Positions 14,201-50,014 of a stretch of DNA of 64,000 nucleotides are shown here, one piece after another. A model generated the notes under the pieces. It had not been told where the DNA came from, ran no database searches, and worked only from the letters and a program-made list of their open reading frames with translations. This DNA comes from Candidatus Omnitrophota bacterium (GTDB lineage Bacteria > Omnitrophota > Gorgyraeia > S143-82). The position numbers were made by a program, and so were the translations under genes. The stretch is taken from positions 180,477 through 244,476 of the forward strand of contig WGBD01000001.1 of the NCBI GenBank assembly GCA_015494465.1. The letters run 5' to 3'. Numbering within the stretch: the first letter of the stretch is position 1; each line of letters begins with the position of its first letter.

Positions 14201-17200
14201 AATCTCGGTAAGGCCGTCGAGGAAGCGGTTGAACATAGAGGCCCGCATGTTCACATAGTACTGATTGAGATACGGATCCTTCTTCCAGCCCTCTGCGGAG
14301 AAGAACTCGTCCATCCGATCTGCCAACTCTTGCTTATAGGCATCCGAGGCGAGGATGTATCCAAGGGCGATGGACAACAACCTCCTCCTGCCCACCTCCT
14401 CGTCCATACCCAAGGCCTGCAGGCGCTTGGCAGAATCGCGCAGGTCCTCTTCCATCTTCCTGCGCTCCTCATCGCTTAAACGGCCTGCAAACCTCTTCAG
14501 GAAGCCACCAAGATTCTCCCTGCCCGAGGAGATCCAATCAATAATCCCGTCTAGATCGGAAACTCCTCTAAAGGAATCCCAGGCCACCGCAGGGAGAGAG
14601 AAGTTGCCTATCCGGACCAACTCCCGTGAGGCCCTCATCAAGGCCTTCTTTGCCTTGGGATACTTACTCAGATCCGCACCGGAGAGGGAGGCAAGTATGA
14701 GCGCAAGGGTAAGGGCCTGCAGATCCTCCCTGCCTTCCAGTTTATCCCTCAACTCCTGCCAGGAGACATCCTCACCCAATCCCAGTCTATTGCGCACCTC
14801 ATTGACGAAGCCTCCGCCTCTCAGGAAAGCGACCTTCTCGTCATCGCGGTCCACCTGATAGCGGGTCTTGAACATTGCCTCCACGAACTCCAGAGAATTG
14901 CGGAAGCCAAGCGCCCTCTGTCTGGCCATCATAACCAATGCGGTCTCTTCCTTGCTCAATCCCAGTTCCTGAACCTGGCGCCAGGTCATAGAGTTGAGGT
15001 TGAGTCGGAACTGGGAATACATCTTACGCAATTGCTTCCTGCTCAGCCAGTAGACCACCGGCACCCCGAACACCGCCACCAGCATAGGCAGGACGAACAG
15101 GAGCCCGCCTATCCAGAGGTACCAGAAGGCAAAGAGACCAACAGCAGTCGGCAATATCACCCTATAGGCCTCAGAAGGAGAGAGCTGTTTGGTCAACAGC
15201 CCTACAATCGCCCCCAGCCAGTTGCGGTTCCCCTGCCAATCCCGGGCAGTGCCTTCTTTCGGTTTTGCCTTTATCGGTTTTTCCAGATCCGGAGTCCTGT
15301 ACTCATCTTTATGCCTTATTACCTGTTCCACCGCGGAGGCAAAGTAAGGAGAAAGCTCCTCAGCCAGATGGGAAACCGCCTCGGTATCCGCAACCAATTC
15401 ACCTTCCTTGAGCACCTTTTCGAGGATTCCCTCGGGTGTCCCTACGGGGAAGATGCCGAACAGGATCTTACCGAGGAAGGAGTTGCGGAAGTAATCCCAG
15501 AGGTGAACGAAGGTTGGCACTCCCTCTGCGGTGCTCATGTCTCGAGTGAGCTGGGTAGTAGAGTAGATGAGCACCCCGTTCCTGAGCAAGATGTATTTCC
15601 GGCCGAGATCCTTGGTGCTCTTCTGGTACTTGTGGGTAGGGATAACCTCTATCGCGGTGTAGTCGTTGCCCTCTTCGTCCTGCCAGACATACCTCTTGAC
15701 ATGGAACTGCTCAAACCACTTACCTCTATTCGCATCGTACAGGTATTCCGCCAAGGCGTTCCCGTTCTTGTCCACGAAGGAGACATAATAGAGATCCCTA
15801 TCACCGTAGTACCTGCGGATGTAGATCCTGGTCCCCATGGGCAGATGGGTATCACCCGGATTGCGAACTTCCAGGATAAAGGTCTCGGCAAACTCGGCCC
15901 GGTTCTTCTCAAACCCTATTAGGACGAAGGAGACATTACCGATCTTGACCAACCTCCTGGCACCACCCTGAGCAACCCTGTGGAGGATTTCTGCCTTATC
16001 GCCTAGGATCTGTCGCACCTGCTCTACTTCGGATGTGATCTGACCTATCCTGTAAAGCGATCCCTGTAGGATACGGCGGGGTACGATCTTGCCGTTTTCC
16101 CTATCCACTTCCACGGACAACTTGCCAACAGGATTGCTCAAACCGATGTCGTAAGTGCCCATCAACAGGACATCTACCCAGCGACGAGGCTTATACACCT
16201 TCCAGTTACCGTTGACCTCTCGTTCAGCAACAAGATCTCTAACCACCACATTCACCATCTTAGCCAATACTTGTCTTGCCCCTTCTCCCTGTAGATGCCC
16301 CAGATCGACCTGTTTCAGGAAGAAGTGCAAGGCCTTATCGTCCAGAAGGTCCAGATACGCCCTTTCGTTCATCTCGGTCCAGACCTTATAGATCTTGTGA
16401 TTGACGAGATCGATCTCGTAGCCCATCACCGGGAACTTGTCCAACCACTTTCCGTAAAGGGTTATCGACAGGATCTCGCCCTTTTCGTTAATCTCCAACC
16501 TGCCTACCTCTCTCGCTGCCGGATCGCCTGCCTTCACGAGAGATACGATTACCTTGCCGTTAGAGACCACCCTCGTCCGACCCAAGCTAAGATCCGTACC
16601 TCGCAACCTGGCGAACAGCTCTAACATCTCTTTGGAGACCGTAGGATCTATCCCCCGTATATTCTGGAGTATGTGCTTTATAAGTGAATCCCCACTCATC
16701 TCTCCAAAGGACTCCAATTCCGCAATAGTGCTCTCTTTCCCGGGACCTCTCAGTACCCACTTTCCTTTACAAATAGTACCTCCTATCGGAGGCTGAACTG
16801 CCACACCGGTAGCCGGAATCGGGAAGGCCTTTTCTTTACGACTCTCCGACATGATCTTCATCAACTGACCAAACGGATTGTTGGAGGCACGATAGTCCTG
16901 GATTACCATGCTCTTGTCAAAGTAGATCACCTGAGCAGTCACGAAGACATCGCCGTCTTTTTTGGAGACATCCGCCTGCACGATCTTACCTACATTGATC
17001 CAGTTCCCCTCCGTCAGCTGATACCTCTCCATAACCACCGGCTCGCTCAACAGGAACTGGCGAGGCAGGAGCATCACCGGCGGAACGAGTCCTTTCTCAT
17101 CCACCACGAACTCCACCAACTCCTGTCCCAAGGCATTATCCTCGGGCACATAAACCTTTATGTGATCCATACCAGAAATAGGATTGCGCCTGATGGTGAA

Positions 17201-20200
17201 CGCCAGATAGGCGTTTGGCAGGACTTTTCTCTCTTGCAGGAGATCCCTCAGTTTCGCCTTCACATTTTCCGGCAGACCTTTAATTTCATCCAGACCTTTG
17301 GCCTGCACCTCTATGTATTCCTCACCTTGAGCGTAGACGAAGTAGTGTTTGCCCTTTTCCTTCAAAAGAATCCCACTCCTCCAGGCGCGGACATCCTTTT
17401 TCAGGGAAGAGGTAATCTTGCTTATCAATTCAGGAGACAACCTCTCTTTCAACTCATCCCAATCCCCCTCTATCACTGCATAGGCAACCTTTGTCTTCCT
17501 GTCCACCACCCTCTTTATCGTGTAGACCTTACCGGCAATGGTGACCTCCCCGGTTACCTCTTCGTTCTGACCTCTGATGTCCGCAAGTTCCCCGAGCGGG
17601 GTCCTTTCCAGTATCACCTGTCTTTCAGGGGTCAGCCCGCCTTTCTCGGGATAGACCTTCCGGATCCACCATTCCTGATCGTACTTCTTATCCACGAGTT
17701 TCACCCTCACCGGAACGCCCGCAGGACCGACCTTCTCTTCTCTCGTCTTGACTCCAGTACGGGTCTTGCCATCCTTGGTCCGATATCTTACATATTTCTC
17801 AAATCTGACCCACACCTCTTTCTTCTTTGCATCGTATCTCGACCGGGCCCGCTCCAAGATCTCCTGCCGAGCACCGTCCCACTTGCCAGAGAGCATCCTC
17901 GGAAGGAGATCCCTGATGTCCTTGGGTAAGTAATCCACCAGTATGGCTTCTCTCATCCGGACCCTGTTGCCCGCAATCTTGCCCTCGTATATAACCCTAG
18001 TCCAGACCAGACCGTAAGAGGTACTGCCCTTTTCGTCCACATAGCGGGTAGGTACCGCCCTCGCGATGAGGTCGCCGTAGGCATCAGATATCTGGTAGGA
18101 TTTGCCCTCGCGATAAGACCAGACCTCTGCAACCTTCCAAACTTTACCGTCTATCTTCACCCACTTCTCCTCTATTCTCTTCAGCAACTCTCCGTGTTTA
18201 TCCTTCACCTCCCGGACTACTGTACCGTCTTCGCGGATCTCCTTTACCTGCTCAACTGTGTTGGCGTTCATCTTCAAGACCGGATCGGCGCTCAACTCCT
18301 TCCTGTCCCAGACCCAGGTCTCTTCATACCAGGCGGTATCCTCTCCTTTGACTTTCCCAACGGCCATACCGCCCTTTTCTATGTGGATGTCGTATATCTC
18401 CTTTGCCACCTTGCCATCCGGCCTGTAGAATATGACCCGCTTGGGCAGATCGGAGAGACCGCCGTACAGGGTCTTAATCACACCACCATTGGCGAGCTTG
18501 CGCTCTATGTCCCTGCCGAAGATGTCCAACTTCACCGTCTCTCTGGCTATCTCGCTCCTATCCGGGGTAAACTTAATCACCTTAAAGGACGCGTTACCGT
18601 CCTTATCTACCAAGGCCCTCTCCCACAACTCCGCAAGGTAGAGCCTGGAATCGCGTCCTTTATAGACCGCAGACCTCTTTAGCCTGCCCTGCCGGTCAAA
18701 CTCGTTCTCTATTATCTGGTGATTCTCAGCAAACCTGTCGCCCCGTTTCTCCACCATAACCGGCTGGAGGAACCAACCGTAAAAGACCTTCTTCTTCTCT
18801 CCGGTCCTCAGGTCAAGGACCTCGTGGATCTCGGTTATCTCGGAGAGATCCACTACCTCTTTATTGGGATCCCTCAATATCTGATGTATCCTGATGTGAT
18901 AAAGGTGTCTGGCCTTGCCGGTATAAATCAGTCTGCGTATCTCATCCCAAGACCTGCCCCTCACATCCCGGGAGAACTCGTATACCTCCGCCGAATCCTT
19001 GACGAGGAAGTCGCGTTCGTCCGAATACTTCTTCCAGTTGTATATGGTAACCTTTCCGTTGGCGCTTATCTGGGCCAGCAGGTGCCCATCCTTTATAACC
19101 AGTTTCTCCACCAATCCGGTATCCGGATTGACCCAATCCACCTCCACCGGCTTGTCTCCGCTGGGGAAGTGGACGGTTATGACCTCTTTCTCACCGTCGC
19201 CGTCCAGATCTATGGGTATGTTCACGAAGTCCTTTCTAAAGGCCTTTATCCTTTCCACATCAGGGAGGTGATTTATCTTGTTAAAGATTGCCCTCACCTC
19301 TTTCTCGTCGACTACTACCTCTTTGACCTCACCGTTCTCTTTGCCCACAGATATGGCTATCTTGCCCTGCTTCAGGGCACCTTCCACCTTGCGGGCAAAT
19401 TCACCCTGCAGTTTGAGGCGCTTGACCTGCTTGGCCACCTCGTCCGTGGAGACGATAATCGTAAACCTCTTCACGCTCCCATCCTTATAGGGGAGGTAAA
19501 ACTTGGAGAAGTACATATCCACATCAAAGACCTCTTTGAGCCGGGAGACATCTACGCCCTCCTCCTCAAGGGTCCTTATCGCCTCTATCCCCTGCAGGAG
19601 GATCTTCCTGTCCGGGCCTTTAGCCCCTTTCAGGGCCTCCTTCATCTCCTGCACCCTGAAGTGGTACCGCTTGTACACATCCCAGAATCTGACTATCTGG
19701 GCAGCGCTGGTCTGGAGCCTCCTCGCGGTCCTCTGGGCGTCCTTTCCGGGCCGGATGTCAACGATCTCTTTGGTGTGTCCTTTCTCATCCAACTCCTCTA
19801 TAATCACACCGCCCTGCCTCTGATTTACCACCCGGAAGTACTTGAGCATGTTCTGATACTTCTGGCGGGATATCTCGAGGGACTTCCTCACCCCCTTGGA
19901 GGTGAACATCGCCATACCTTTGACCTCTATCTCCGCATCGGGCTGGCCCAATCTTCCTTTCTTCACCTCCACATAGGCGTACACCGGAACGGACGAGCCC
20001 TTGTTTTCCCCGCTCATCTTACCGGAAGGACTCATGTATCCCAATAAGACCCATCCACCCTTGGCGGGATCAAACTCTGCCAGCCTGGACTCAAACTCCT
20101 CAAGGCTCATCTTCTCTTTCACATCCCGGCCTTTGACTAAAAGGACATCCGTATCCTCGTACCCTTTTTTCTGGTTAGTAAGTATCTCTACGAGGTCTTT

Positions 20201-23200
20201 GGTGGCCTTTATGCGGAACGGCAGGGTTATGTCCACACCCCAGAGGTAGATGTGCAGGGCGTCCTTAAGACTGTCCTTCCACCAGAACAGGAGCTTGAAG
20301 AGCGGATTGCGATCCCTTACCTCTTCAAGGGTATTGGTCTTGTCGACGAATTCCCTCAACTGATGGAGGATGTACCTGACATCGATCGTTACGCCAATCG
20401 GCAAGCGATTGAGCTTCTTTGCCTTTTCGCGTCCATAAGGCCCTTTAGACTTCTCCACCTTATACTTAGGAGCGTGATCGTAGGACAGATACTCGCGATC
20501 TATGAACTTATATACGATGTTGTGGAGTTTGATCTCCCAAGGCAGACCGAACCAATAGTTGTGGAATACCTCCTTTGCACCCCTGTCCCAATCCTTCTCC
20601 GTCAACTCTGCCAGCGAAGACAGGATCCCGGTGAAGGTCAATATGTCTCTGTCCAGTTTCTCCGTCGCATCCCCCTGACCCAAGGCCTTTACGAAGTCCT
20701 TATCCTCGTCCACATTCCTGATGGCGCTCATAAACAGACGATACAACTCCTGATAATCTGCTTCGTTGAGATCCTGCCCGTACTTGGACTTAAGCCACTT
20801 ATAGGCCTTCAGGACCTCTCCCCTTACTGCGGTAGAAGTGGGATCGAGTTTCCTGCCGGCGTTCTCTTTCCGCACCTTCTCTACCGCCATCACCCAGAGG
20901 AGGTAATCGTTCAGTTTCTGTCTGAAGGCCTGCTCGTAGTCGTGCCTGCCAACATACCTATCCAGTATCCCGAACAGTATGGCCGCCAACTTAAACCCGG
21001 CACCTATCTGGGGAGAGACGAACGCACTACCAAGGGTGGCAAAGAACCAAGCAGTACCGGCTCTCACCTGACCCTCCAGATGGCTTACCATAGACGCCTG
21101 GGATATGGCACTGAGTATACTCCGGGCAAACTCCTGCTTTGCGGACCAGACCGTACCAAAGAGCATCGGCATCCTGCGCGCGTCCTTTTCGCCTTTCACC
21201 ACGATCCTGAACTGCAGCGATCCAGATGCCTTACTCTTTATCTCCTCCCAAGTTACCTCTTCCAACTCGTCGCTCGTGCCCTTGACCCTATAGGCCTTGA
21301 CCTCGTACTCCTTATCTCCAACCTTTACCAGCACCTGCTTCCTGCCGTCGGGGAGGATTACCTCCTTCAACTCACCCTTGGATATCAAGGCTTTCACGCC
21401 CGTGGGGATACCGGTGACCGGATCCACATCCATTACCACTGCGACTATCGGACCGGTCTGACGGGCGGAGGCCTTGGCCTGGAGCATCTGCCTGACCCGT
21501 TTCAACTCTCTCAATATCTGGGCATTGGGATCGTCTCCGCCTTCACCACCGGATCTACCAGAGGAAAGGCCTTTGATGTAATCGTCCAGCACCTTGAGGG
21601 CCCTTTCCACATCGCCCTCGGCCAATGCCCTGTCAAGGGCATTTGCTACCTCCCTGCTGACGAGGTACTGCTCCTGCACCGCCTTGTCCTTCTCCCAGGC
21701 GTGATATCCGAAGAAGAACCTGTACTCCTCACCGGACTTTGCCTTGACCTCTAGCATCACCGGGACATTCTTGCCCTCCCTGTGGATGGCGTCCAGATCC
21801 GCAGGGGTGAGTATCTGACCATTAATCGCATTTTTAACTATTACCTCACCGCCCTCCTCCTTTATCTTCTTGACCCACTTCTTGAAGGCGATGGGATTGG
21901 TAAAGACCTTCTTTATGCTATATTCCGGACCCTCTACTTGGAGGGCGTAGGTTTCCTTATTCAGCATCTTCCTCTGGATCTTCTTCCAGTTGAGCGCCTT
22001 GCGGAACTCGGTCTCAAGGGCATTGAGCACCTTCTCGGGAACGGGCTTTTTTGCCTCTATGGTAGCCTGTTCTATCTTCTGCTGTACCTTCACCGGATTG
22101 GTGATCTTCGGCGTCTTAACCTTTACCGGAGCGGGTCCCTTCTTTATCTCCTTCGGCCTTTCGCCTGCCTTGACCGGGCTGGCAACACTGCCCATCAGCC
22201 AGTTCAAGGCCCTACCCAAGGTCCGCTCGAGGAAAGATGGCTCCGAAGTCGCCTTCCCTGCCTCCTTGGCCAGTCTATCCCTCTCGTTTACCCCGCCAAC
22301 CAACCCCGCAACGGAGGATCCCAGTCCCGGCAGGACCACCGAACTGGCCACCATCACCCCACTGCGGACCAGATTCAACATCGTCGTCTCGATGGGGGCA
22401 ACCAGCCAGGAGATGTGCAGGTGATGGGCGGTGGAAAGGACCATGTGTATCTCCAGCGGCAACAGCATAAGTGGAACCATCCCCGGCAGGGCATAACGCA
22501 GTGTGGTCGAGGAGAATAAGCCTCTGCCAAATGTGGCAAGGTAGGAAACCGTCCTCTCGGGCAGGGAGAGCCTTACCTCTTTAACATCCAGACCCAACTC
22601 GTTAACCAGAGACCTCCACTCCACCTCCGGCCAGAAGAACTGCAGAGACCTTGCGAGACCAACCAACCTCTCATCCTCAAGGTCCTGCTCCTCCCTCAAC
22701 TTCCTAAGGAGTTCCCTGACCGCAGTGGTGTCGTCCACCCTCACCGGAGGGGCGTTGTTCTGATATCCGACGGCCCTCAACAGCTCATCCAACTTGCGCT
22801 GGGCGGATCGTATCCTCCGGACCTTCACCATCGACGGTGCGGTGAACAGGGCAGAGAGGCTGAAGGTGTTGGCCAGATAGGGCGCAATCGCTACCTTGTG
22901 CCCGAAGAGGGATACGACCCCTGTGCTGAGGAACGGCGCCAGCGCAAAGAGATTGGCTACCCCAAGCGTCGCCAGGGAGGAGAGGACGAACAGCGTGCCC
23001 CTTCTCTTAAGGAAGTCCAGAGTCCCGCCAAGCGTTACATTCCTCTCGAATGCAGATCTCGTCTTACCAACGATGCCGAAATTGCCTCTTTCCTCCTCAG
23101 GCAGGGACAGGAACGCAGACACTACCCGGTTCACCTCTTCCTCAGGCAACACTCTGTAGTCCCTGAACTGGGCAACCAGCCACCGCTTGCGGAAACTCTG

Positions 23201-26200
23201 ACCGAAGAAGGAATCCAAGAGGTGTATCATCGTCCTCGGCACGAACATCACCCCGTCAACCATGCGCCTGGCGGTGCTCCACCCCAGTTTGTCCGCCACC
23301 CAAGCGTACACCGCCAGTTTCTTGGGCAGACCGGTAATCCCCAGCCTTGCATACCAGTTCGCAATCGTTCTCCTCAACTCGTGGACAGAGAGATTGCTCA
23401 ACCGGGCCTCGTCCAACCCCATAAATCGCTGAGCAAACTCCTTAAGAGCCACCTCGTCCATCTCCCAGACGAAGCCGGCCGACCGCACGGATGAGTAGGC
23501 CGACAGGAGGTATTCTTCTTTTCTCCTCTCCAACTCCCTGCGGAGAGAGGAGACCTCAGCCTCGGACAATCTTTTGATGGTCTCTTCCTTAAGGCCAAAC
23601 TCTTTTACGAGTCGCTCCCGATCTCCAGATATGCCCTCCAACCGGTTGCTCTCGTCCGGAACGAGTTCTACCCTGCCCAGACTGTCCACCGCCACCTTAA
23701 GGGCCTCGTTCCCGGCATAGCCGGTCATCTTCTCGTTGGAAAGAGAGGCCGCCGTCCTCCTCAAGCCCAGCCATCCCTGAATGAACTGGGAATACCCGAC
23801 GAACAGGGCAGGTATCCCAATGCCCCAATAGGCCCACAGAGAGGCATGGGCGGTAGCGAGCATCCCTCCTGCGTATATAGCACCCAGTCCCGCTCCGGCC
23901 TTGAAGGCAGAACCCGCCAAAGACCTCCAATCGGTCTTTCTAATCGCCTCTTTCCAATTCGCCTCTCTCAACTGACTCAACAGGGCCCTTAACTCCCTGC
24001 CTATGCCCAAAACTGCTCCACCGGCTGCCCCTGCCAGAGCGGCAGCGACGGCGGCAGGCATACCTACCGAGGGCAGGAAAGACATCCCCGCAAGGACCGG
24101 CACAGCGGTCGTAAGGGAGAGGCGGGAATTCGCCAGATCACTCATTATCGCTCCCGGCCCCTTGGTTACCGCCTTCCAACCCGCATAGGTACCGAACATC
24201 GCCAATAGACCCGCGCCACCGGAGGTAACGGTCAACACAGTAAGCGGCAGGAGATAGCCCTTGCGCCCCAACACCCTGGACTGGACGGACAGACCCTTGT
24301 GGTAGAGACGGGCTAACCTGCCCTCCTTACGGTATCTGTCCACCAGATCCTTAAACTGTTTATTAGCCCGTTCACCCGCACCCAACAACGAGCTAAGATC
24401 CTCATTCCCGCCGTTTACCAACGCCGATAGAACCTTCCCGACCAAGTCTGTATTCTCCACCCCGTTATTCACCACCGCCCGAGCCACGGCATCTATCGCC
24501 GAGGAGACCGGATCAACCTGGGCGAACTTCGCCATCCACCTGTTTTCCAACATAGTCGCAAACGGATTGGCCGGGGCAGAGGCCTCGGCAAGCGCCCGCT
24601 TTAATCCCCTGAGTTGACCCTCGTCGGGCAGATAACGGGCAAGGATGTCAAACTTGTCTCTCAGAGACACATCGGAATCCGCGAGTTTCATCGCATCCCG
24701 CACGGTAATATTGTCCTCAATCGCCTTTGCTCTATCCCCAAGGGCGGTTTCCAGACCGCTTAGCACCGAACGGACCGCCTCGGCCTTCCCTCCGGCGAGC
24801 ATAGCGGTAGCCATCTCCCGCGCCAGTTTTCCATCTTCCAAGGAATTCAGCCCAAGGGCCGTTAATCCCTTGCTTTCTATCTCACTCCACCTGATTCCCC
24901 TCTTCGGAACGCCCCTGTTGAGTACCGACCAGCCGAGGACCGGCAGTGAGGACACACCCGCAATCACCTTTGCGATACCGGATGCCCCTGCCACTGCTAT
25001 GGCGCCTCCCGTAGCAAGGGCGATAGACGGATTCAACAGAAGGAGACCCAGACCGACCACCCCTGCCAAGGCAGTGCCGGTGGCGACCTTGGGCATAGGT
25101 CCAACCGGGGCAGAGAAGGAGAAGGACGGAATCATCCTATCCCGAAGCCTTAATCCCAGTTGCCCCTTGAGAGCCCCGATATTATCGAGAACCTTCCCGT
25201 TATCTATCTCCGGCAGGGCAAGTTCCCGCTCCACCGCCAATGGAGTGCTCAAAATAGCCTTTAGCGAGGAGGACGCTACAGACCCAAGATAACCCCCAAG
25301 GGCACCTATCTTGCCCGACCATCCAAGGGAGGGATTCCTCCACTCCCTCAGGAACTCCATCTTTGCCCTCTGGTGGGCAAGGTTCACCGACGCCACCTTA
25401 CTTGCCCCGACCCGCTTGGGGGTGGACAGCCTCACCGATAGGTTATTCAGGAACTCCTCAAGGCCCATGTCCTTTGCCCTGAAGGCCTCTTTCCTGATAA
25501 AGTCCTCGTCGGTTATGCCCAACCTATTCCGCATAAGCTCGCTATACCCTACCACCCTCAGGGCCTGCTCGTAGGAGAGGTTGGGATTTACGAATACATG
25601 GGTAAGGGCATCTCTGATTTCGCCGGTCTTATCTCCTACCTTTTCACTGATGTTTTTGATGCCCGCAAGGGCCTGGGCCGGGCTGGTGAATTTTTCATTC
25701 AAGGTCTCCACTTCATCTTTACGGGTATTCAGTTTTTTCCCTATCTCCGAAAGGGCCTCAACCACCTGTTTCTGGGTATCCCCATTGAAAGACCCTTTTG
25801 AAATATTCTCTATGGCCTGATTGAGGATTTGATTCTTGTCCTCGGCAAGCACATTGGAGACCACAGGATTGGCCAAAAGGCTGTTCAGTTGAACAGAGAT
25901 CTGCTGGAGTTGTTCGTTACTGACTTGATTAGGATTGAGTTGGGATATCTGAGCGGTTATCTGGTTTACACTCTGCAATGCGGAGGATATTTGGTTAGGC
26001 AACTTGTTCAACGCCCCATTCAACAGATTCGCCACCGCCGGAGGTGCGCGCAGGGTGGTAGGGGACATCCCCGCAAACGACCTCGCTAATTGATATTCGA
26101 GATTCCTCCTTACCTCAACCGGCATATCCTTTGCCAGGGCATTTACGACCACCTTCGCGGTATCGTAGGCGGTCCTGCCGTGTCCAGGGGCCTTCTCCAC

Positions 26201-29200
26201 CATCAACGCAGAGATAGCCCCCTCGTTCCACTGAGGGGTAAACTCAGGCTGACTAGACGGTGCGGTCTGTACCTCGACTCTGGCCTCCTTCTTCATCTCC
26301 CGCTCCAAATGGGACTGGGAAACCGCACTTGAACCTCCATTAAGCACATCCTTACCCCAAAGCCTCTCTACGATCTTGCCTATCTCCTGCCCCTTAGCCT
26401 CTCCCCTAAGATAGGCATCCAGTTCACCGTACCTGAAGGCCTCCTTTAGATCCTTTGCCACACCCTTGCCTACTTCCCTCTCCACCCTGTCTATCATCCT
26501 GTCCATCTGGGTCCTTACGGCCTCAAGGGATTCCCGCACCAATTCCTCTGGTGTCAATATCTTTTCTCTGGACAAGAGTTGTTCAAAAGGATTGTCCTTG
26601 GGATTCAGTATCTCCTCCGTTTCGATTCTTTTAAGCCTCTCGTAGACCTCGGGCCTGCCCAAGACCCCATTCTTCGCCCCCGAGACGAACATCTTCCACG
26701 GGGTGGTGAAGAGGTTCGCCCGCATCACATCGGTGAGGATCCTCCGAGTGGCCTTGGCGGATTCCACCGCCTGCATCCCAGCCAGATAAAGGGCAAGTAC
26801 CTTGGACTTCTCCTTACCCTCCCCTTCAAGATACTTATCCAACTCTTCTTCCTTAAGGTTGCCATCCTTGTCCAGGATATCCGAGCGGATCTTCTTCCAC
26901 ATCTCCTTGTAAGACACATTTGAGGCCTTGACCCTTGCTTTGGCCTCTGTCCTCGTCTTCATTACCCTCATATCCACCTGATCTATCAGATCAAGGGTGC
27001 GGGACACGTCTTTGGAACGGAAGAGGTTTTCTTTGAGGAAGTTCTTCACCAGACTATCCGCAACATATATGTAGGCATTACCACTGCTTCCGCCCTCCTT
27101 TCTATTTATCCTTCCCAACACCTGCTCTGCCAATGCCTTGCTCTGGGAAGGAGAGACTATGTCAATGAGGTCCACCCTTGCCTTATCACCTGCGGTTATA
27201 CCTCTGGCTCCCAGTTCACTGACGAGTATCACCTCAGGGGCCCCCGCACCTTTCTCCCCGAGATTCCTTGCTACACTCTCCAACTCCTCCGGCTTATCCG
27301 TATAATCCTCGGCATTTATCCCCTTTTCCCTTAACCTCTTCAATATCTCTTGCCTCATCCCGGTATCCTCTACCACCACATAGTAGGCATCCACCTTTTC
27401 TTTACCCTTGAGGTTGAGCCCGCTTACTATACCGTTCACCACATTATTGATGAATTTATCCTTTTTCTCCTCCTTGAACACATCCCAAAATACCCCGGTC
27501 TGCTTCCCGCTGGTCATCACTACCTTTTCGCCATCAAGGACTAGGGTTATAGGCCTTCCGATGGTCTTCACCCTCTTGCCGGTTATACCCTCAACCAATG
27601 GTTCTATGTCCCTGAGTGTACCGGAGAGGAAGACCACATCACCAAGCCGTGCCACATTCAGCAGTTCTCCCACACTGGTGGAGGTCACCGTGATCCCTCC
27701 CGCCCGGGTATTCTCAAGGGCAGCCTTATAGTCAAATCCTCTTTCTTTGAGCAGCGTAGAAACATGCTTTACCTGCTCTGCTCCTACCCTCACCTCTTCT
27801 GGTTTAAACTCGCCCTTGCTTATCAAACCGGACAGAAAGGCCTTTGCCCCCACATACTGCACATTCTTGCTTATCTGCTCGGGACGGAATTGCCCCTCGC
27901 TATAGGGGACAAAGCGCTTTTCCTTGCCATACCAAGACACCATCCTATCAAAGACCAACTTGCCACCGCCGACCTTAACGCCTTCTATCTCCGCCAGCAC
28001 GGTAACTAGGGAGTTCACTCCAGCCACCGATACACCCTTGCCGACCAACTTATCTCCCCTGCGCTCCAATCTGAAGTCCTTCAGGACCTGAGGGTTTGCC
28101 CCCTCTTTTATCTCGAACATCCCGGTCTGCTGGTTGTAGTTAAAGTTCTCGTTGAGGAACTCCTCAAATCCCTTACCCTCGTACCTCCCAAGTGCCCGTT
28201 TCACCCCTTCCCAGGCAGGCTGTATCTCCTTTTCAACCACATCCGCTATGGGAGCCCCGCCATCCCCTATTATGGCGTCCACCGGGGTCCTCAAAATGGC
28301 CTCCTCATCTATGATGACCCTCGCCCTATCGCCTATCTCCCTCCGCTTTGCTATAAAGGCGGTATACTCTCCCGCCTCGTAGAGTTTATTCATGGCCTGC
28401 TGGAAGGCACTGTACTCCCCAACCACTACCCTTCGCTCATTCGTGTTCGTGAGGACCTCCCTGATCTCTTTTGCATCCATCTTCGTGGGATCTATTACCT
28501 TTATGTTCTCCTTCCCTCTATAGTCTCTAATCAGATTCTCGTTGGAGGTCATGACATACATCTTATTACCGGTGAGTTTTAAGGCCTCTTGTATTACCTT
28601 GTTATCGACGAAGTTCTTCACCAGGGCCGAATTGGCAAGGTACAACTCAGTAAAGCCTTCCTTGGCGTAGTTATGGCTAATCGCCATCATCTCGCTGGCG
28701 TAGGTCTTTCCACCTCCCACAGGGGCCTCTATGTTCCAGAACTTCGCGCCCAAGATACCTTTAAGTTCTTGAACTGCCTTCGGTTTAAAGCCCTTATTCT
28801 CAACCTTCCTGAACGCCTCCTTCGTGGCCCAAGATGCCAAGACCGCACCTCCAATGTGCCGGCTGAGGGACTCAACCTCCTCTTTACTCAACTTCATATC
28901 GGGAGCAAACTCTTTCAGGATAACCTTTACGGCGTGCCTGACCTCCTTACCATCAACTTTCACTCCTGTTTCGCCCTCCTGAACCATCTGCTCGCCGAGT
29001 CCCTTATCTATCTTTGCAACGAGGGCGTCGAATTTCTGCTCAAACAAGGCGAACTTCTCCTTGGGAAGGATACCCCTCGCCGACTCTACCATAGTGGACC
29101 TTTTGACTGCCTCCGTATACACCGAACGGAACTCTTTGGCGCCCATCCTAAACAGGTCCTTATTACCACCCATACCCTCTGAGGCCTTCATCATGCTCCT

Positions 29201-32200
29201 AAGCACCTCCGCCGAGGGAGAACCCATCCCCGCAAGGGCATCCACCGCCTCCTGCACACCTACCGATCCTGCTCTATGGGCAGAGGTCTTTCCAAGGAGA
29301 TCTCCAACTTTTGCCTCAGCGGGGAACAGATTCTTGACCGTTTCCCCGAGATCACCGCTCGCCTCCAGAACCGCACCTTTTTCTACGGCCTTCCGCGCAA
29401 CCCTTTCGCTCGCCTCGTCCACAGCCTGGCGCAACAGGTCGCGGGCAGGAGTGGAGGTTATCCTTATCGATCCCTTCAAGGCCTCTTGGAAGACAGGATG
29501 CTGGAGGAGACTGGTCCTTACCAAACGATAATTCTCATTGACCCGAGCGGCTTTCATCCTGCTGATCTCATACGGGGACTCGAAGGACTTAATGGCAATA
29601 GCGGCATCTACTATTTCCTCCCTAACCTTACCGTAAGTCTCGGGAGAGAGGCTTAACTGAGATTTGTCTCCGAATAAGGTGCCGGTCAACTTCTTGGCGA
29701 TACTGACCACATCGTTCACCTCTTTTCCGGAGATGCGGGCCTGAATCGCCTTTTCTATCTCACTTTCCATCTTGGTACGATCCACCTGCGGTTTCTCTAC
29801 CCCATTCGCAGTATCCTTAGAGATCAATGTCCCAAGTCTTCCCCCAACCGCATTTTCAATATCTGCCCTTAACCGCTCCCTGGAAAGCCCGTTCCTTTCA
29901 CCGATCCCCTCAGCAAACTTCCTCAGAGAGGAGACATAGGCGTCAATGGTTATCCTGCCTTCCGCAAATTCCTTTCCATAGCCTTTTAGAAGGGCATCCA
30001 CGGATTGAGCCACCCGTCCTTCTCTCGCCATGTTCAAAGTGGATATCTCAAAGGCCATCTCGGGGCTGAGTCCCATCTGCCTCAGTCCCCGGAAACTCCT
30101 GCCCTCCTGCGCAAGGACCTCCATAGCCTTCCTCTGGTTAAGGCTATTGACGAGGGCATCCTGATGCATCCTCTTCTCACCGGTCAGCACCTTCACTGCC
30201 TCGCCTCCGCTCATCTCCTGCACCGGCAGACGATAGGATCCTTCTTTCAACATAGACCGCACAGCCCCTGCAGAAATGGAGTTCGCCCTCCCCAAAGGCA
30301 TCTCGTGGATACCCAACACCTTACTGCCCGGAATACGAGGCGCAAGGGCCACCTCACCGCTCCGCTTGGTCTCTATACGGTAGAAGAGGTTCGTCACCTC
30401 CCGTGCAACCGGATGGACCCGGCGGGACTTCACTTCGGAGGTAGAAACTTTCCCGGTTAGCACCTTATTCACATCCCTTTCTAAGCCCTGTAGATTCTCC
30501 GCCACATGTCCCACGGAAGACTGAACAACAGTCCTACCCACCAACGCAGTAGAGAGGGCCTTCCCTCCGAAGGTCGCCCCTACCCCCATCATTGCTGCTT
30601 CACTAGTCATTGCCATACCGAATTCCTTGGGAAGGCTCTTCCACGCACCAAATCCCTCCCTGGCTCCTCTCAAGGCACCTCTAAGGCCAAATTGCCCTTC
30701 GACGGCCTCCCCCCTCCAGCCTTTTACCGCTCCTTCACCCGCACGCAGGATCCGCCCCGTCCCCACATGGGCAACACTGGCCCCCAACAGCGTCCCGGCA
30801 AAACCGGTGAGGTTCTCGTAAACCCCACGACGCTGATCAATACTTTTCAGATTGCCCGCCAAGGCCTGTCCGACCAGAGCCCTGTTGTGCCACATCCAAC
30901 CCAGTTGACGGCTCGCCTCAGCGTAGAACGGCCGTATCACAAACCATGTGTTTGCCAGATCAAAGGCAAGAGAGGAAGAAAAACTCGCCCCCCGCGTCAG
31001 CCTGCTGAATCCACCAAAGAGGAGGCCAAAGGCCCCCATAGTAAGCGAAGTCTCGGCTCCTTTGTATAGCAAACCATACAGGAGATACCTCCTATTCCCG
31101 GTCTGCTCGTATCTTTTCAAGAGATACTCCTGCTTCGTCTTAACGCCTGCTTTATTGAGGTCCTCTCGTCCGATCCAGAATACGGCCCTATCCATCGCCC
31201 TGCTCACCCCGGCAGAAACAAGTCCCATCGCCCGGCCTCCCAATGACTGCCCGTTTCCTGCAGGAACGAAGAAAGAAGCAGTTGCCACGGTCCTGATTAA
31301 AGACGCAGAACTAACCCCGGCACCTGTCGGGACCAAGGCCCTGCCCCCACCGAGGGCAATACGCTCGCCTACGCCAGATCCCAAACCGGAGAGTCTCCCG
31401 GAGACCCTCGCCCCGATACCGGTGATCCTGCCCCTCAGTTCTCCCCCGAGCCGTCCTCCCCATTCCACAACTCTACCTGCTACCCTGCCCACCAATCTTC
31501 CTTCCAGACCGCTACCAACGCTCTCCCAGATCCTAACGGGTACCCCACGAATCCCCTTAATCTTGCCCATCACCCTACCCGCACCAATTACCCTAGACCC
31601 TGCGCGGCCCAATGTCCCCTTGGCCACCTCAACCACCCTGCCGGCCCTAACGGCCCCCACGACTGGGGCGAGGGCAGCACCGGCCAATACTTCCACGGCA
31701 GCCGAATGGGCTAAGATAGGAGCAATCGCATGTAGATACCCTATTGACTTGCCTATCTTCTGCGCAGCCCCATACTTCTCATCTACTACCTTGGATACTT
31801 TCTCCGGCGACAGGCCCGTCAGTATTGGCACGAGACTCTTAAACTCACCTACATAGCCACGACTCATTAGATCTAACTCACGGTTCAGAGTTCGTTCGGA
31901 TCGCTTGGCAGACTCCTTATGCCCAAACATCCGCTCCAAAATGATCCCTATTTTCGCCGGGATCTTGACTAAGAATGAAACAGGTGCCAGCGATTGCCGA
32001 ACGCCTGTCGAAAATGTATCCCCTATGTAAGCGTCCCTCCAATCCTTTAACAACTGCGGATTCTCCTTGAACGCCTTGCCTAACTTCTTTCTCAGGGCAG
32101 CGAAACTCTCCCAGGTGTGCTGGGTGACGAATTTCTTATAAGCCTCGCTAAGGTCCTGCCTGTTCCTCAGCGGATTAGTAACCCAGAGGTGGCGTAGTTC

Positions 32201-35200
32201 CGGTGACTGTGCGACTTTGTGTGCATAATAGTCTGAAGACACCTGAAAGAGTACAGACGGCCGGATGTATTCAGCGGTCAAACCCTGCTTTTTAAGCCCC
32301 TCAAGGGAATTAGACCAACTGTAATTTTTGAAATACTGCCTGAATGCAGTATCCTGCAAACTCCTGTTTACGAATGAAATCGTGGTCTCTTGAGGGCGCA
32401 GAGCCTTCAGAGCGACTGCACTCTTGCCCATAAAGAGGCCCTTTTCCTCATACCTGACCAGCCCTTTCTTCTCGTCAAGGTTGGGGATAAATGCACGCCA
32501 CTCTTTCCCGCTGAGGTCTTGTAAGGCCTTTACGGTGAGCATGCGATCGTCACCGGCCAGATAAACCCCGTTTTTGCCAGCACTCGTGTCGATGTGTACA
32601 CCGTAAACCATTTTTGCTATACTCACCAGCCCGCGACGATCCCTCACCTTATCGCCCCAAGTCCAACCCCGAACGATGTTCACACCTTTGATATCACCAC
32701 TTGGGCCCCGCACAATCGCCGTCGGGAATATAGGCCGGGTCTTTCCGTCGGAGAAGTAGAAGTAATCCTTGGCCATTGCCAGATTGCCTGCAAATCTCCC
32801 GGTGGCATTGGCGACCGTACCCAGTCCGGTGAGAGACCACTCGACCCCCTTTGCACGGACTATATCGCCTTCTTTGTACACCCTTGCCCCGGCCCGGGTA
32901 GCCTCAACGGGACCCTTGGGTTTGGGAGAAGAAGGAACCGCTATCACATTCACCAAGACAGGCAAGTCCCCCTTTATGTTCACGGCACCCGCATTGACCT
33001 GAACCTTTTGCGTCACCAATTCCTGCCTACCATGCGCTACCTTGATGTTCAGGTCCCCCCTTATCCCCGTCCCCCCTCCGGTCAGCGCTACGATGTCTGC
33101 CTTCTTCGAAGAAAGTGAGAGGGTACCTATCCCGATACCCAATTCATTGAGTGCCTTCATTTCCTTATCGGTTAATGTTTCCCCCTTATAGGCCTTTATG
33201 ATAGCGTCCTTCACCTCCCGGGAAATCTTTAGAGCATTCAACTTTTCAGCGAGATCTTCAACTCCCTTGGCAGTCTCAAAAATACCCTTGATCTGATTAT
33301 TTGTCACCTCCCTTGCCAGCAATACCTGCTTCTGAGAGGCGAGGTTGTACATATTGGCAACAGTGGTTCCACCCGTGAGATTTACGCCTCCAAAACCGGT
33401 TACCCTATCGTATGTAGCGCCTCTGTTGATGTTCTGCAAAACCTCAATGTTCTGCACGGGAGTCTTCGCACTTCGGCCGGTATTAAAGGTCCCCACGAGG
33501 AGGTAATTGGCGTTCTCGACATCGCCGGTAAACCTCAACTTGACCGCGTTGCTCTGGTAGGCACTGAGGGTGCCATACATGTTGGTCATAAAGATGGTAA
33601 GCCTCTGATCCGTGGCAAGAAGACCTGCTCCCTCTTTTCTAACCTTTACTTCAATTGTACTGATACCTCCGCTGGACCCCGAACCGGGGGAGGAGCCGGG
33701 TCCTGCCGACAAGAAGGGCACGAACCAGTTCTCTCCCTCTACCTTCCAGGCGTTGTGGGCTCTATCATAACTGAGATTACTCTGTCTCCAATTGCTCACC
33801 CCATCTACCTTAAAGGCTACCTTAAGACCCTTTCCACCCGCTAAAGTAAGATTTCCACCCCGTAGTTTGTACTTTGCCTCTTCAAACTTAAGTCGGCCCT
33901 CCTTAATCCGCCGGACATTGGCAGCCTCCTTTACATTCCCGACATCCGGAGTCTGGACCTTGACCCAACCGCGTTTACCCTCAAACGGGATCTGGATCCA
34001 CACCACCTGTCCCTCATTAACCCCCGAAAACTTTACTTCACCATTAGGATTAAAGGTCGCGGTCATTTTGTTAGTGAAGGCCACCTGATTTACGACATTG
34101 GGAGCGCCGTTCTTCCCGGTGCCATAGGTAATTGGCATTCGATCCGCGGTTTCTCCATGGATGGTGATATTTGTCAACACCCGACGATCAACGAAGTCGC
34201 CGGTTACCTCCGCCGATCCCTTACCGATGCGCACGGAAGAGAAGGTGTTATTTAGTAAGATCTTAGAGGGAGGTTTGAAGTTCAATTCAGCGACGAGCTC
34301 ACTAGCCCTGCCAACAAAATCTGCCTCCGTCTTTGGGATGTCTATCTTTTTCGGTCTTCCTGCATTACCAGAGTCGGGGTTTCCTCCACTAATCCGCATA
34401 GCGTGCACGGGGAGGGTGAGTCGGTTTTTGCCATTTATAAAAGCCCGTCCAGATTTATCTACAGACATCTTGGCCTGCTGGTTTTTATAATTATTGTACG
34501 AGACAGTGACATCGAGAGGTTTCGTAGCGTTTATCCTGCGATTTATTCCCTGATCAGGCGTGACATCCCAGGTAAACGAAACACCATGCCCAAAATCAAC
34601 TTTCACCTTATGGGTTTCCCCTGTTTTTTCATCTCTCAAAACCGTGTCCAAGTGAGTGACATTATTCTGCGTAATCAATGCCCCGTGCTTGAGCACGCCT
34701 TTGTAGGAGGAGATGGCACCGGCCTCGTTAAAGTAGAAGTCCCATGCCCCTCCTTGCTCAGGACGGGCATCCATATCCACCTTATCTGCCAACAAACCGC
34801 CCAAGTAGGTCTCCTTGATAGGCCCCTGCCCTCTTACGACCAGATTCCTTGGTATGATGTCGTAGGTAGAACTCTGCGGGTTGGCAAGGGCGTTCGAGAG
34901 AGAAACCAAGAGATATCTATCTTTTGCCGGTGAATCGGGGTTTGAAGATATGACTTCCTTCACCCACTTTATATCCATAAAGCCATGGCCTTCTGGAATA
35001 GGTTGATCCTGTGGTGGCTGACCCCGAGGTGGCGCCCTATCTGGCAAGAGTCTGGTTCCCCAAACCCTGGAATAAGTCGCACTTACCCTCTTTGCCCACC
35101 AAGCACCTGCGTCTATTAAGGATTGACTAGTCCTCACCACATCCAAACCGTACACTCCTGCGCGCTCGTTGCCTTTGCTATCGTAAACCGGGATCGTAGC

Positions 35201-38200
35201 GACCATTCGCTCGGAAATATTGCCCCGATCCCAAGCAAATCTTATATTCATAGGATCAACACGGCCCTGTGGCAGATTCTTATTCCCCTGCTCTGCAAAG
35301 TCCCTCCCTATGGTCTTGTTCCCAAAAGATATAGTCGAAGAAAGCACACGGGTTGGAGTAAATGTAACGTTCATCTGAGTGATAGGCCCGCCCTGCATCT
35401 CATCGGTTATGTCGGCCTGGACATTCCAACTACCGGCGCCATAGTAGTAACGCCCATCCTTTATTCGCATTACACTGGTCTTTGCTAAGTCCTCCGGGCG
35501 CACATGCTTCACGACTCGGTGAGAGACCCTGTCCTCTCTCAGGTAGTTATCCACAGCCACAAATCCCCGGGTCTCGGGATTGGTGTATTTACCAAACTTC
35601 ACTATCAGATTTTTATTCATTGAGGCATCAAAGAGATCACCGGATCCAGAAATGCTTGTAGAACCACCGAATCCCGGAAGGGATTGGGCAATACCCTCAA
35701 ACTTTACCTTTGCTTTATCCATATAACCGAGGTTATAAGGGTTCACATCATCCCCAAGAGATGTTATAAAGTCGAACTGGAAAGGAGGCATTTCGCCTTT
35801 TGTATTACTACCGGAAGTCTGTGAAGCACCCGCACCCGTCTCTGATACAGTCTGCTGAGGCGCAGCCAATGCCACAAGAAATTTATCATCTTTACTTCTA
35901 AGCACTTTATCTTCTGGACTCAAGACCATAGACCTAGTTTCGCCTGTCTGGATGGAGTAATCCCGCCATAGGAAAGCGTCTAACGGATTATCTTCTAAAG
36001 TAGAAAATGTCTTCTCTGGGCCAAACAATAGATTTAAGGTCCATTCTTCACCTGGATAGTATGCAGTTAATTCCCCTCGAACCTCTTTCGAAGATCCTTC
36101 AAGCTTATCCATATGATAACTCAGTTTGAAACCTTCACCCCTCATAACCGTATTTACATCAAATGTAGCAGATACAGGTTTTTCAAATTGCGCCTCCGCT
36201 TCGTATCCGATGCCATTTTCCACCCTGTACCTATCAAAAGCAATGTGGCTAATTCTGGCTGCCGTGCCTGGGGCGAGTTCTAACTTATTGTCCAATACTG
36301 CCGTCCAGAACTTCTGTTTGCTTATAGGCTCTACCCACCCTGTCTTCTCAGACAGAGCAAATCCCCGCCGGATGCCGTTTATCTCAATCTCACCGGCCTT
36401 TTTACCCCAAAGCATAGTATTCCGGAAGTCAAACGCCATCCCTTCCTCTGCAAAGGGATTCACCCTCATCCCCGCCCTCAATGACGCAAAGACCTCCTTC
36501 GCTCTCACTCCCTCGTCGGCCTTCAACCTCGCCTTCCCAACATTTTCGGGTAACTCCGCAGTAAGGGCGACGACATCTCTGGACAGTTGAGTCGTCCGCA
36601 CGGATGCAAGTGCCTGTGGGGTGGGTTGTCTTTGAGGTGAGGGTGTATTCGTGGATCTGACTGTTTTATCCCAAGAAAAATGAAATATGCTTCCTTCGTC
36701 CATCCAGTATTCATCCGATTCTTTCCGATGGATAACTCCGGTGGTATACACCCATTCCCTCCCTATCTGGTGAACACCCTTCGGGAGACCCGTGCCCTTT
36801 TCAATGAGATCGTTTCTACCCCAACTGAACACCGGCACTTTTCCCTCAGGGCTTAAATAGTAAAACCTCCCACCAACTATCCCGTCGCTTAATAACATAC
36901 CCATCTCACCGGGCAAATTCCCCTTAGCAAACCTCTCCTCTAATCTCCCCAAATACGCCTTACCGGTCTCCTCCTTACGCAGGATGTTATCCAGTTGTCC
37001 AAGGTCCGTCCCCCCCGCTTCCAAGCGGCGGAAGGCCCCTAAGACCCGACCTACATTGAGCTGTCCGGAAGAGGAAAGGTAGGTTGGAACTCGATAGGAA
37101 AAGAACTTCGCATGAGTGGCTATGCCAACGGTGATGTCCTCCTCCATCCGCTCATCATAGGTGTACCTATTCTCAAAAGTGCCTACGGGGGTGTAGGTGG
37201 CCAGATCGTATAATTGACTATTATTGGCATATTCACCAGCGCGATTTACATAACCCAAGAAAGTGGTGCTATTATCCATCCAGCGGGAAAACAATCCCGC
37301 AAACGGCCCCGAACCTTTTCTTATTTTCATACCCAAAACATCTCCGAACTTGATCCCTTTCCCTTCGGATCCATATACACCATTCAATCCCACGAAGACC
37401 GGTCTTTTATCACTGAGATGAAGGGCATAAAGACCGGAGGAGAGAAATATCTTATCCATTATATTCGTAGAGACCGCGTGGGCGCCCTGAGAGACCATCC
37501 TGCCCCAGACCTCACCTGGAGTAGGGAGTAGATGATAACGCCAATCGCTGACGCCGTGCTCCTTCAACTTATCCGCTATCCCGGACATCTGGACTATCCC
37601 GGCGGCATTTGCCAATCTCATTGCATATCCACTCGAGGCTGCCTGATAAGAGGAGAAATCCCCGTAATTGCCAAGCTCCGGCGGACGCCAAGTGGCCAAG
37701 ACTCCCTTCAGTTGACGCATCGAACCCGAAAAGGCCTCTTTCCAGGTTGGCCTGCGGAGGGTCATCTTTCCGTCAGGTCCAACGACCGGATGGGTGGTAG
37801 CCTTGGCCCACAAAGCGCTGGCCCCAACCAGCGCCAAGGTGGTAACCTGTGAACTGGCATAGGGGCTTAGACCTAGTTTATCCTCCGCAAGGTCCTCCAG
37901 CTTGCCAACTGCCAAGTCCGCAATTCCACCTCTGACCCCCGATATCAACACATCCTTCCAAAACTCACTCGAAGCCAAGGACGAACCTGAATAGCCTTCA
38001 CCCGTGGAGGCAATGCCTCTTCCTACCGCAGAGCTTATGGAAGTGCTGACCAATCCCCTCAGGAAGTTGTCTTTTACCCACCCCTTCTTCTCCGCGAGGC
38101 CAGTAACTGCCAATCCCACGCCCTCCGAACCCCATTGAGAGAGGTTAGTTCTAGAAAAAGCATCTTTAATCCCCCGTCCAAAGCCTCCCTTAGTCAAGGG

Positions 38201-40538: not shown

Positions 40539-40542
40539 ATTG

Positions 40543-41659: not shown

Positions 41660-41670
41660 AAACGCCGTCC

Positions 41671-44532: not shown

Positions 44533-44875
44533 TCACCGTCTCCTTCACTTCTTCATTAGCACTTACATGTTCGAGAAGGTCAGAGCTAGCAGCTCCTTCG
44601 TTAACGGGAACAAAATTATGGTATGTAACGACATTCCTGGAGATAGTGCGCTTATATTGAACAGTTCCATCCTTTCCGAAGGGCTTATGTCCCAAACTGG
44701 AGATGAGGCTGTATATCCTGCCTGCAGAAGAGCGTTTCAGGTAAGGCATCATCAACATCACTGCTGCGGTTATCACCATTATAAGCACGGTAATCTCTAC
44801 CGCCGTCTGTCCTCCGCTGTCTCTTTCACATAGACTCTCTAATCGTATTGGATGTCGAAGAGGTAGTCTCAACAT
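44507..44875 (-). CDS. flp: Flp-family pilin paralog (long leader; start uncertain)
   Basis: ...RDSGG|QTAVEITVLIMVITAAVMLM: G/XXXXE motif followed by a hydrophobic helix. The 5' end overlaps the upstream pilin by 50 nt, so the true start may be internal or non-ATG. Confidence 0.5.
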   Translation of the reverse strand: MLRLPLRHPIRLESLCERDSGGQTAVEITVLIMVITAAVMLMMPYLKRSSAGRIYSLISSLGHKPFGKDGTVQYKRTISRNVVTYHNFVPVNEGAASSDLLEHVSANEEVKETVSETYEASI

Positions 44876-45146: not shown

Positions 45147-45151
45147 TTATC

Positions 45152-45662: not shown

Positions 45663-45691
45663 ACCTCCCTTTTCAGGTTATCCTGATCAGA

Positions 45692-46057: not shown

Positions 46058-46073
46058 CCTCCTCTTTAAGAAT

Positions 46074-46380: not shown

Positions 46381-46382
46381 AT

Positions 46383-46721: not shown

Positions 46722-46747
46722 AGCTTCCTCCCCCTATCCTATTAAAC

Positions 46748-47122: not shown

Positions 47123-47161
47123 GGCCTCCCCTCCTTAAACTCTCCACACTCTCAAACTCCC

Positions 47162-50005: not shown

Positions 50006-50014
50006 CGGGCCTCA

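Follow-up and report, generated by a model that had tools for sequence, protein, structure and literature searches.

A segment of about 600 residues within a 10,455-residue giant protein of a Candidatus Omnitrophota bacterium, encoded in the 64,000 nucleotides of contig WGBD01000001.1 analysed here (the window), is very probably a genuine and apparently active two-lobe motor ATPase of the DExx-box type of superfamily 2 (SF2), judging from the motifs of amino acids (aa) ~3596-4200. We put the odds at about even that this segment is SecA-derived, as a strongly diverged representative of the SecA-like modules known from Omnitrophota giant proteins, and that it works on polypeptide at the membrane. 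SecA identity is not established, as the segment is too divergent to be called SecA. The original prediction for this DNA had described a complete SecA-like DEAD motor embedded in the giant protein; a two-lobe DExx-box motor with an insertion at the site of the SecA PPXD is supported, whereas the specificity for SecA is not.

The giant protein is specified by a single uninterrupted open reading frame (ORF) on the minus strand, in which nucleotides (nt) 27002-28804 encode aa 3600-4200, while the plus-strand translation of the same interval holds stops throughout. All four peptides quoted in the original prediction are found on the minus strand between aa 3626 and 4181: APVGGGKTYAS as Walker A at aa 3626-3636, VIIDEEAILRTPVDAIIGDGG at aa 3762-3782 (136 aa after the start of Walker A, where about 135 aa had been claimed), LVSELGARGITAG at aa 4126-4138 as motif V, and QVLGRINRKEGGSSGNAYIYVA at aa 4160-4181 (nt 27059-27124) as motif VI with its tail. 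The ordered set Walker A...hhhDE...RG[ILVT][DT]...QxxGRxxR with SF2-like spacing is found at a single place in the protein and in none of 5000 shuffles of its residues, which rules out a chance coincidence of motifs; product arithmetic from the single-motif frequencies gives an expected chance occurrence of ~1e-7. Although this pattern was picked after the sequence had been seen, it corresponds to the canonical SF2 motifs. The residue classes required for ATP turnover are all present in canonical order and spacing (Q3611, K3632/T3633, D3765/E3766, R4133-G4134, R4164 and R4167). When the segment is aligned with MAFFT to 17 SecA sequences, Q3611 lies 22 residues before T3633, an ungapped spacing identical to that of VQ...GKT in SecA. 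A Q located ~22-25 residues upstream of GKT is, however, general in SF2. MAFFT also offered an alternative motif V on SVARNLGEKGAG, which was rejected, since both the distance from motif VI and the alignment of a DEAD-box hidden Markov model (HMM) favour LVSELGARGITAG.

The first lobe, RecA1, has one more beta-alpha unit than that of SecA, with predicted strands and helices supporting two motif-Ia-like units at aa 3651-3694. The second of these, KMYVMTSNENLIRDY, resembles SecA VVTVNDYLAxRD, and the SecA-HMM domain aligned there is non-significant (-3.8 bits). The consecutive units ELYLANSALVKNF and KMYVMTSNENLIRDY are similar to each other, which suggests, from the sequence, that the motif Ia unit was duplicated locally within RecA1; this would give the 133 aa, instead of ~100, that separate Walker A from Walker B. 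About 15 residues past Walker B, at the position of the PPXD in SecA, RecA1 is interrupted by a domain of ~200 residues. This insertion (searched as aa 3775-3995) has no family match in the Pfam, NCBIfam and PADLOC libraries, and is predicted with low confidence to consist of mixed helices and short hairpins.

The only families recurring across these three HMM libraries are SF2 helicases, each correctly positioned and all below their cut-offs. Pfam was scanned at E<=10 with aa 3400-4400 (1001 aa) as a whole, which matched neither a helicase nor a SecA family, and then with nine sub-segments for sensitivity. The RecA1 piece has ResIII (PF04851) as its top Pfam match (E=0.013, 15.9 bits against a cut-off of 22.5, profile positions 25-133 of 164), and it also matches DEAD (PF00270; E=0.067, 13.4 bits against a cut-off of 26). 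In PADLOC, sub-threshold matches are seen to CasDinG (E=0.0026, 14.5 bits) and Cas3c (E=0.026) on RecA1, to DpdF on RecA2 (E=0.0046, 13.6 bits) and to Cas3b on motif VI (E=0.0022-0.017), while NCBIfam gives a sub-threshold match to RadD on motifs V-VI (E=0.042). The second lobe, RecA2, is covered completely by the DEAD-box HMM, which aligns aa 4064-4184 collinearly through motifs IV, V and VI, and E. coli DeaD aligns aa 4068-4183 in a phmmer comparison. A sequence search of the PDB with the motor region found nothing. Structure prediction is in line with an SF2 fold without discriminating SecA: AlphaFold run without an alignment on the whole module reached a mean confidence (pLDDT, the predicted local distance difference test) of 43.8, at which the Foldseek matches of the model are meaningless, and a construct of aa 3612-3875 reached a pLDDT of 69-93 over aa 3652-3756 only and gave no significant Foldseek match.

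Several features are shared with SecA and SecA2. Besides the DExx-box motifs I-VI and the Q...GKT spacing, these are the RTP following Walker B, which MAFFT aligns with SecA DEARTP, the ~200-aa insertion at the PPXD site, and the succession of motif VI, G-S-S..Y and D.L...F; Walker A, RTP, motif III and motif VI are all set collinear on SecA by MAFFT. For a profile comparison, an HMM was built from 17 diverse N-terminal regions of SecA, SecA2 and SecA-like proteins taken from PLSDB records, as a homologue search with E. coli SecA had returned only Enterobacterales sequences at least 90% identical to it, which are unfit for a profile. With filters off (--max), this HMM scored 6.0 bits on aa 3580-4260, a value reached once among 2000 global shuffles and three times among 1000 local ones. 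It was the best of three identically built family HMMs, since one from three E. coli DEAD-box paralogues scored 2.0 bits (equalled by 11 of 2000 and 14 of 1000 decoys) and one from eight DinG sequences -0.3 bits, on the P-loop only, a score that ~2-5% of decoys reach. When overlapping tiles of the giant protein were scored with the SecA HMM, only four that overlap aa 4152-4227 exceeded 6 bits, all others staying at or below 0.3 bits. In the alignment this stretch falls on SecA motif VI and the beginning of the helical scaffold, weakly over the ~45 residues past motif VI. The preference for SecA in the region of motif VI and its tail therefore appears, at the level of sequence, small but real, and far from proof.

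Other results weigh against a SecA-derived motor. SecA_DEAD (PF07517), SecA_PP_bind (PF01043), P-loop_SecA (PF21090) and SecA_SW have no Pfam match at E<=10 in the region or its sub-segments, the helical scaffold and wing model SecA_SW (PF07516) has none in aa 4175-4420, and the NCBIfam SecA models do not match the motor region, although very weak matches may be lost to the filters of HMMER. A BLASTP comparison with E. coli SecA is likewise empty. The SecA-HMM signal is limited to motif VI and its tail, no positive score being contributed by the NBD1 or PPXD columns, and hhalign with SecA returns the same aa 4152-4227 stretch at P=0.009 and a probability of 4.4%. Compared one sequence at a time with phmmer, 16 SecA proteins score -2.2 to 8.0 bits and overlap the -2.4 to 3.9 bits of 11 other E. 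coli helicases and ATPases, and the library scores of other SF2 families (ResIII, CasDinG, DpdF) are higher in bits. The inserted domain, at 185-205 aa, sits at the PPXD site but carries no recognisable PPXD signature, no SecA_PP_bind match, no positive SecA-HMM score and no confident model, and an insertion directly after Walker B is also typical of XPD/DinG. Motif I (APxGxGKT) and motif V (ARGI) are ResIII/DEAD-box-like, as against MRTGEGKT and GRGTD in SecA. The module further differs from SecA in its extra beta-alpha unit between Walker A and motif Ia, in the PPXD, helical scaffold, wing and C-terminal linker going undetected, and in being embedded mid-protein where SecA is a free-standing protein of ~900 aa. 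In SF2 generally, motif VI is followed by a G-rich turn and then a hydrophobic strand. The original prediction had taken DE..RTP and GSSxxY to be specific to SecA rather than generic to SF2, a view at odds with the character of motifs I and V and with an insertion site common to XPD/DinG, and it had proposed a check with Pfam SecA models, stating that the absence of a SecA match or a best match to another SF2 family, together with a structural model lacking a PPXD-like insertion, would count against it. Because the SecA models are silent and the best library matches are to other SF2 families (ResIII, DEAD, CasDinG, Cas3b/c, DpdF and RadD), this is, at the sequence level, what was found.

What favours a SecA-derived origin is, besides the motif VI region, the genomic context. 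Most giant proteins of Omnitrophota have been described to carry divergent SecA DEAD and preprotein-binding domains, in modules that lack the scaffold and wing and are proposed to export the giant protein itself (West-Roberts et al., 2023, bioRxiv 10.1101/2023.11.21.568195). Both the presence of SecA-like motors in giant proteins and the self-export idea voiced in the original prediction were thus already published in 2023. A PF07517 architecture cluster and Tad cassettes flanking giant genes are reported as well (Nielsen and Lui, 2026, 10.64898/2026.06.07.730766). The locus in the window is of the type published for Omnitrophota giant genes, with a multi-transmembrane giant protein adjoining genes like those of type II secretion (T2SS) and Tad systems. 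It resembles the loci of West-Roberts et al. (2023) in belonging to Omnitrophota, in its multi-transmembrane giant host protein, and in its T2SS/Tad genes, class III signal-peptide genes, Rotamase_2 peptidyl-prolyl isomerase (PPIase) and GH2-like proteins, and the module itself in having two ATPase lobes, an inserted domain and no detected scaffold or wing. The published modules are, however, detectable with the Pfam SecA_DEAD and preprotein-binding models and the module here matches neither; the two are likened by the published description. The published giant proteins also contain many recognisable domains, whereas the one here is non-repetitive and Pfam-dark.

Homologue searches back no assignment, descent from SecA included, through either conservation or phylogeny, as no homologue of the motor segment was found. 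A word-indexed search of 5.8 billion proteins returned nothing, and neither the GTDB genomes nor the JGI metagenomes, each scanned twice (the second time with a synthetic alignment forcing motif-based seeds), yielded a motor homologue. Exhaustive phmmer against 1.84 billion representative proteins gave one spurious match in a library from which giant proteins may be missing. This sole match, P0001 (E=6.7e-15), is an artefact of the 35-residue VKHVSTLLKERGFDYKAALENTRAGGITVTSTSVG aligning with a repeat unit of which a 1702-aa protein has 11 copies, its score being inflated because these are summed. The giant protein of the window is itself absent from the output of the exhaustive search even though neighbours from the same 781,960-bp contig are in the collection, and since very long proteins are possibly missing from the library, negatives for segments of giant proteins call for caution.

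Orthologous giant genes could instead be located through the neighbouring gene for phosphoenolpyruvate carboxykinase (PEPCK), downstream of the giant gene, whose named homologues are from Candidatus Omnitrophota, Kaelpia and Saelkia. In GCA_054035575.1 (JBPLON010000048.1, L027:1-7366) PEPCK has 83% identity, as against 41.6% for the final 2454 aa of the giant protein when these are compared with aa 7916-10455. In GCA_054040295.1 (JBPKZG010000005.1, L026:1-6158) PEPCK is 78% identical and the giant protein shows only patches of 27-32% identity; this giant gene encodes 16,032 aa with no Pfam match on record, and extra genes (of 814 aa and 543 aa, plus others) lie between it and PEPCK. The comparison covers sequence outside the motor region, one orthologue's contig breaking at the equivalent of about aa 4460 and the other gene being covered within a flank of 10 kb. 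Giant genes therefore evolve far faster than their neighbours (41.6% where PEPCK has 83%), and because orthologous giant proteins diverge so fast, it is plausible that a SecA-derived module would have moved beyond HMM detection.

It is conceivable, albeit rather unlikely, that the segment is instead an SF2 nucleic-acid helicase or translocase of the ResIII/DEAD/Cas3/RadD kind that became fused into the giant protein and works at the membrane on DNA or RNA, perhaps drawing in or processing nucleic acid from prey. An analogue exists in ComFA, a membrane-associated DEAD-box-like protein of competence systems that works with type IV pilus-like machinery, and the genes neighbouring the giant gene do encode a pilus system. 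Every sub-threshold library match is to a family of nucleic-acid helicases, and in bits these matches exceed whatever SecA-like signal there is. The residues of motif I (APxGxGKT) and of motif V (LVSxLGARGI) are those usual in ResIII/DEAD-box proteins, and the DEAD-box HMM aligns the complete RecA2 lobe. However, the ResIII and DEAD matches do not discriminate, because such broad models also match canonical SecA: PF00270 is listed on nearly all of the canonical SecA matches from Enterobacterales recovered with E. coli SecA. The typical nucleic-acid-binding signature of motifs Ia and Ib (PTRELA, TPGR) is absent, the SecA HMM outscores the DEAD-box and DinG HMMs head-to-head, and the related giant proteins carry Pfam domains of the SecA type rather than the helicase type. 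Scores below the cut-offs for ResIII, DEAD, Cas3, RadD and DpdF, no match to Helicase_C, no motif III within ~30 residues of motif II, and a RecA1 split by a domain of ~200 aa also set the module apart from generic SF2 helicases, for which its membrane-protein context is atypical. Of comparable, low likelihood is a scenario in which the segment founds a sequence-orphan SF2 family distinct from SecA, with its own ~200-aa insertion and extra RecA1 beta-alpha unit, that is hard-wired into the Pfam-dark giant membrane proteins of one Omnitrophota lineage and powers something other than classical Sec export. Such a family might thread or extrude, in cis, the 10,000-residue chain of the giant protein to which it belongs, or it might, together with the neighbouring Flp/Tad pilus, take in or process nucleic acid from prey.

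The position of the insertion raises the question of whether the segment is the core of a 5'-3' helicase of the XPD/DinG family, its insertion after Walker B being the arch domain and its iron-sulphur (FeS) domain having been lost. Like XPD, DinG and CasDinG, the segment has an accessory domain in HD1 right after Walker B, and CasDinG is the best, though weak, PADLOC match on RecA1. In CasDinG, Walker B is formed by D337/E338 and the arch domain spans residues 352-467 (PMC10450177), starting ~14 residues past Walker B, which matches the distance here, and the low-confidence prediction of helices and short hairpins would suit it. On the other hand, the DinG HMM is essentially silent beyond the P-loop, the Walker A-Walker B interval of 133 aa leaves no room for an FeS or vestigial FeS insert, there are 2 Cys in the entire protein, and neither Helicase_C_2 nor DEAD_2 has a Pfam match in the motor region. 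RecA2 is, moreover, of DEAD-box/SecA size rather than that of the larger HD2 of XPD, and taken together we regard an XPD/DinG core as highly improbable. It is similarly hard to credit that the segment is a decayed SF2 relic, devoid of ATP hydrolysis and kept only as a structural element or spacer while the giant protein around it evolves rapidly. The extreme divergence, with no homologue detected among the 1.84 billion representative proteins, and the Pfam-dark, very fast-evolving nature of the whole protein would accommodate a relic, but the catalytic Q, GKT, DE, RG and both motif VI arginines are intact and in correct order and spacing. A relic is disfavoured because such an intact catalytic set is unexpected after release from selection in a fast-changing protein.

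If the module is SecA-derived, ATP binding and hydrolysis at the lobe interface would cause the two lobes to open and close, and the inserted domain may convert this motion into steps along a linear polymer. The polymer would most probably be polypeptide, because the module is tethered between hydrophobic segments of a membrane protein and encoded beside Flp/Tad pilus genes. The module would have to face the cytoplasm. At aa 1-34 (nt 39500-39601, minus strand), the giant protein begins with (M)KGRKIFAQFLAIFTSILFIFENISWA, followed by YG, which resembles a Sec signal peptide with an AxA-type cleavage site between the two. Should this predicted signal peptide be cleaved, the N-terminal part of the giant protein would be exported, and a cytoplasmic ATPase would then need an odd number of membrane crossings before aa 3600. 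No SecYEG genes were identified among the scanned ORFs of the window.

It is an unsolved problem how proteins of 10,000 to more than 100,000 residues are made, inserted and exported by bacteria whose genomes are tiny, and the main clue in the literature is that a SecA-like motor is built into such proteins. In a lineage whose giant proteins lack Pfam domains, an SF2 motor nonetheless persists intact, carrying an insertion where SecA has its PPXD. If this motor is homologous to the published modules, it would be more general in giant proteins than current domain surveys suggest, and its 600 residues would make a compact construct for biochemistry. Should it be of the helicase type instead, the 'self-export' hypothesis would need revision for this lineage.

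Table 1. Coordinates of the predicted motor module and its elements, of the giant gene and of the neighbouring genes in the window.
Feature	Position (nt)	Strand	Residues and remarks
Giant ORF	8234..39601	-	10,455 aa; signal-peptide-like N-terminus, many hydrophobic segments, without Pfam domain
SF2 ATPase module (very probable)	27002..28816	-	aa 3596-4200; RecA1, insertion, RecA2, start of helical tail
Q-motif-like KAVQELKGIL	28751..28780	-	aa 3608-3617; aligned with MAFFT --add to the 17 SecA sequences
Motif I / Walker A APVGGGKTYAS	28694..28726	-	aa 3626-3636; K3632, T3633; start of ResIII/DEAD/CasDinG matches
Two motif-Ia-like strand-helix units	28520..28651	-	TELYLANSALVKNF aa 3651-3664; KMYVMTSNENLIRDY aa 3680-3694
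Ib-like RVVVGEYSAF		-	from aa 3724
Motif II / Walker B VIIDEE	28256..28318	-	D3765, E3766; then ILRTPVDAIIGDGG; tail ILRTP
Insertion, about 185-205 aa	27641..28255	-	aa 3783 to about 3965-3987, between motifs II and III
Motif III region	27617..27700	-	within aa 3968-3995; candidates GGITVTS (MAFFT-aligned to SecA LAGMTGTA) and VVFLSGT (predicted strand)
RecA2 lobe	27032..27565	-	aa 4013-4190, starting TIGRP at 4013
Motif IV-like AYYVVVED		-	within aa 4071-4081
Motif V VILVSELGARGIT		-	aa 4124-4136; listed also as VILVSELGARGITAG (aa 4124-4138)
Strand RVDLIDIVSP		-	aa 4142-4151
Motif VI QVLGRINR		-	aa 4160-4167; then GGSSGNAYIYVA
Strand NAYIYVA		-	within aa 4160-4181
SecA-HMM-matched stretch	26921..27148	-	aa 4152-4227; motif VI, GSS..Y, ADSLVKNF, helical continuation
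Helical, charged region		-	from about aa 4181, beginning ADSLVKNF
Two T2SSF-domain genes, TadB/TadC-like	39636..41397	-	directly upstream of the giant gene, same strand
Larger pseudopilin-like genes	43341-44532, 41417-41779	-	322, 96, 557 and 120 aa; N-terminal segments like those of the Flp-type array
~10 small genes (Flp-type array)	44507..47332	-	49-124 aa; Flp-type (class III signal peptide) N-termini, (K/R)GQSxxEYxxLxxhhh
SurA-like PPIase (SurA_N_3 + Rotamase_2), two-domain GspF-like T2SSF protein, two GH2/GH72-like TIM-barrel proteins	48629-51085, 56405-60852		further upstream

The Flp-type array and the pseudopilin-like genes are co-directional with the giant gene, and the Pfam matches of the small genes (Flp1_like, Flp_Fap and Class_IIIsignal) are sub-threshold only. 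The description of the product of the giant gene as a giant membrane protein in the original prediction is borne out by a Kyte-Doolittle scan, in which a hydrophobic N-terminal segment and ~15-20 strongly hydrophobic stretches are seen in the 10,455 aa. Pfam finds zero domains in the whole protein, even when it is searched as 523-aa tiles (best E about 0.006). A BLAST comparison of the protein with itself is empty, which rules out internal repeats and a second copy of the motor. Its composition is marked by an extreme depletion of cysteine, which accounts for 2 of the 10,455 residues (0.02%), against 184 Trp and 121 His.

Among the PLSDB records, alphaproteobacterial plasmids encode free-standing SecA-like proteins of ~640 aa (Methylosinus sp. 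C49 pMSC49a, WP_244635385.1; a Pseudosulfitobacter plasmid) that are ~41-45% identical to E. coli SecA over NBD1-PPXD-NBD2. Their annotation reads 'prepilin peptidase' or, in Mesorhizobium, 'DEAD/DEAH box helicase', which reflects either a mis-annotation or an uncharacterised link between a SecA-like ATPase and pilus genes.

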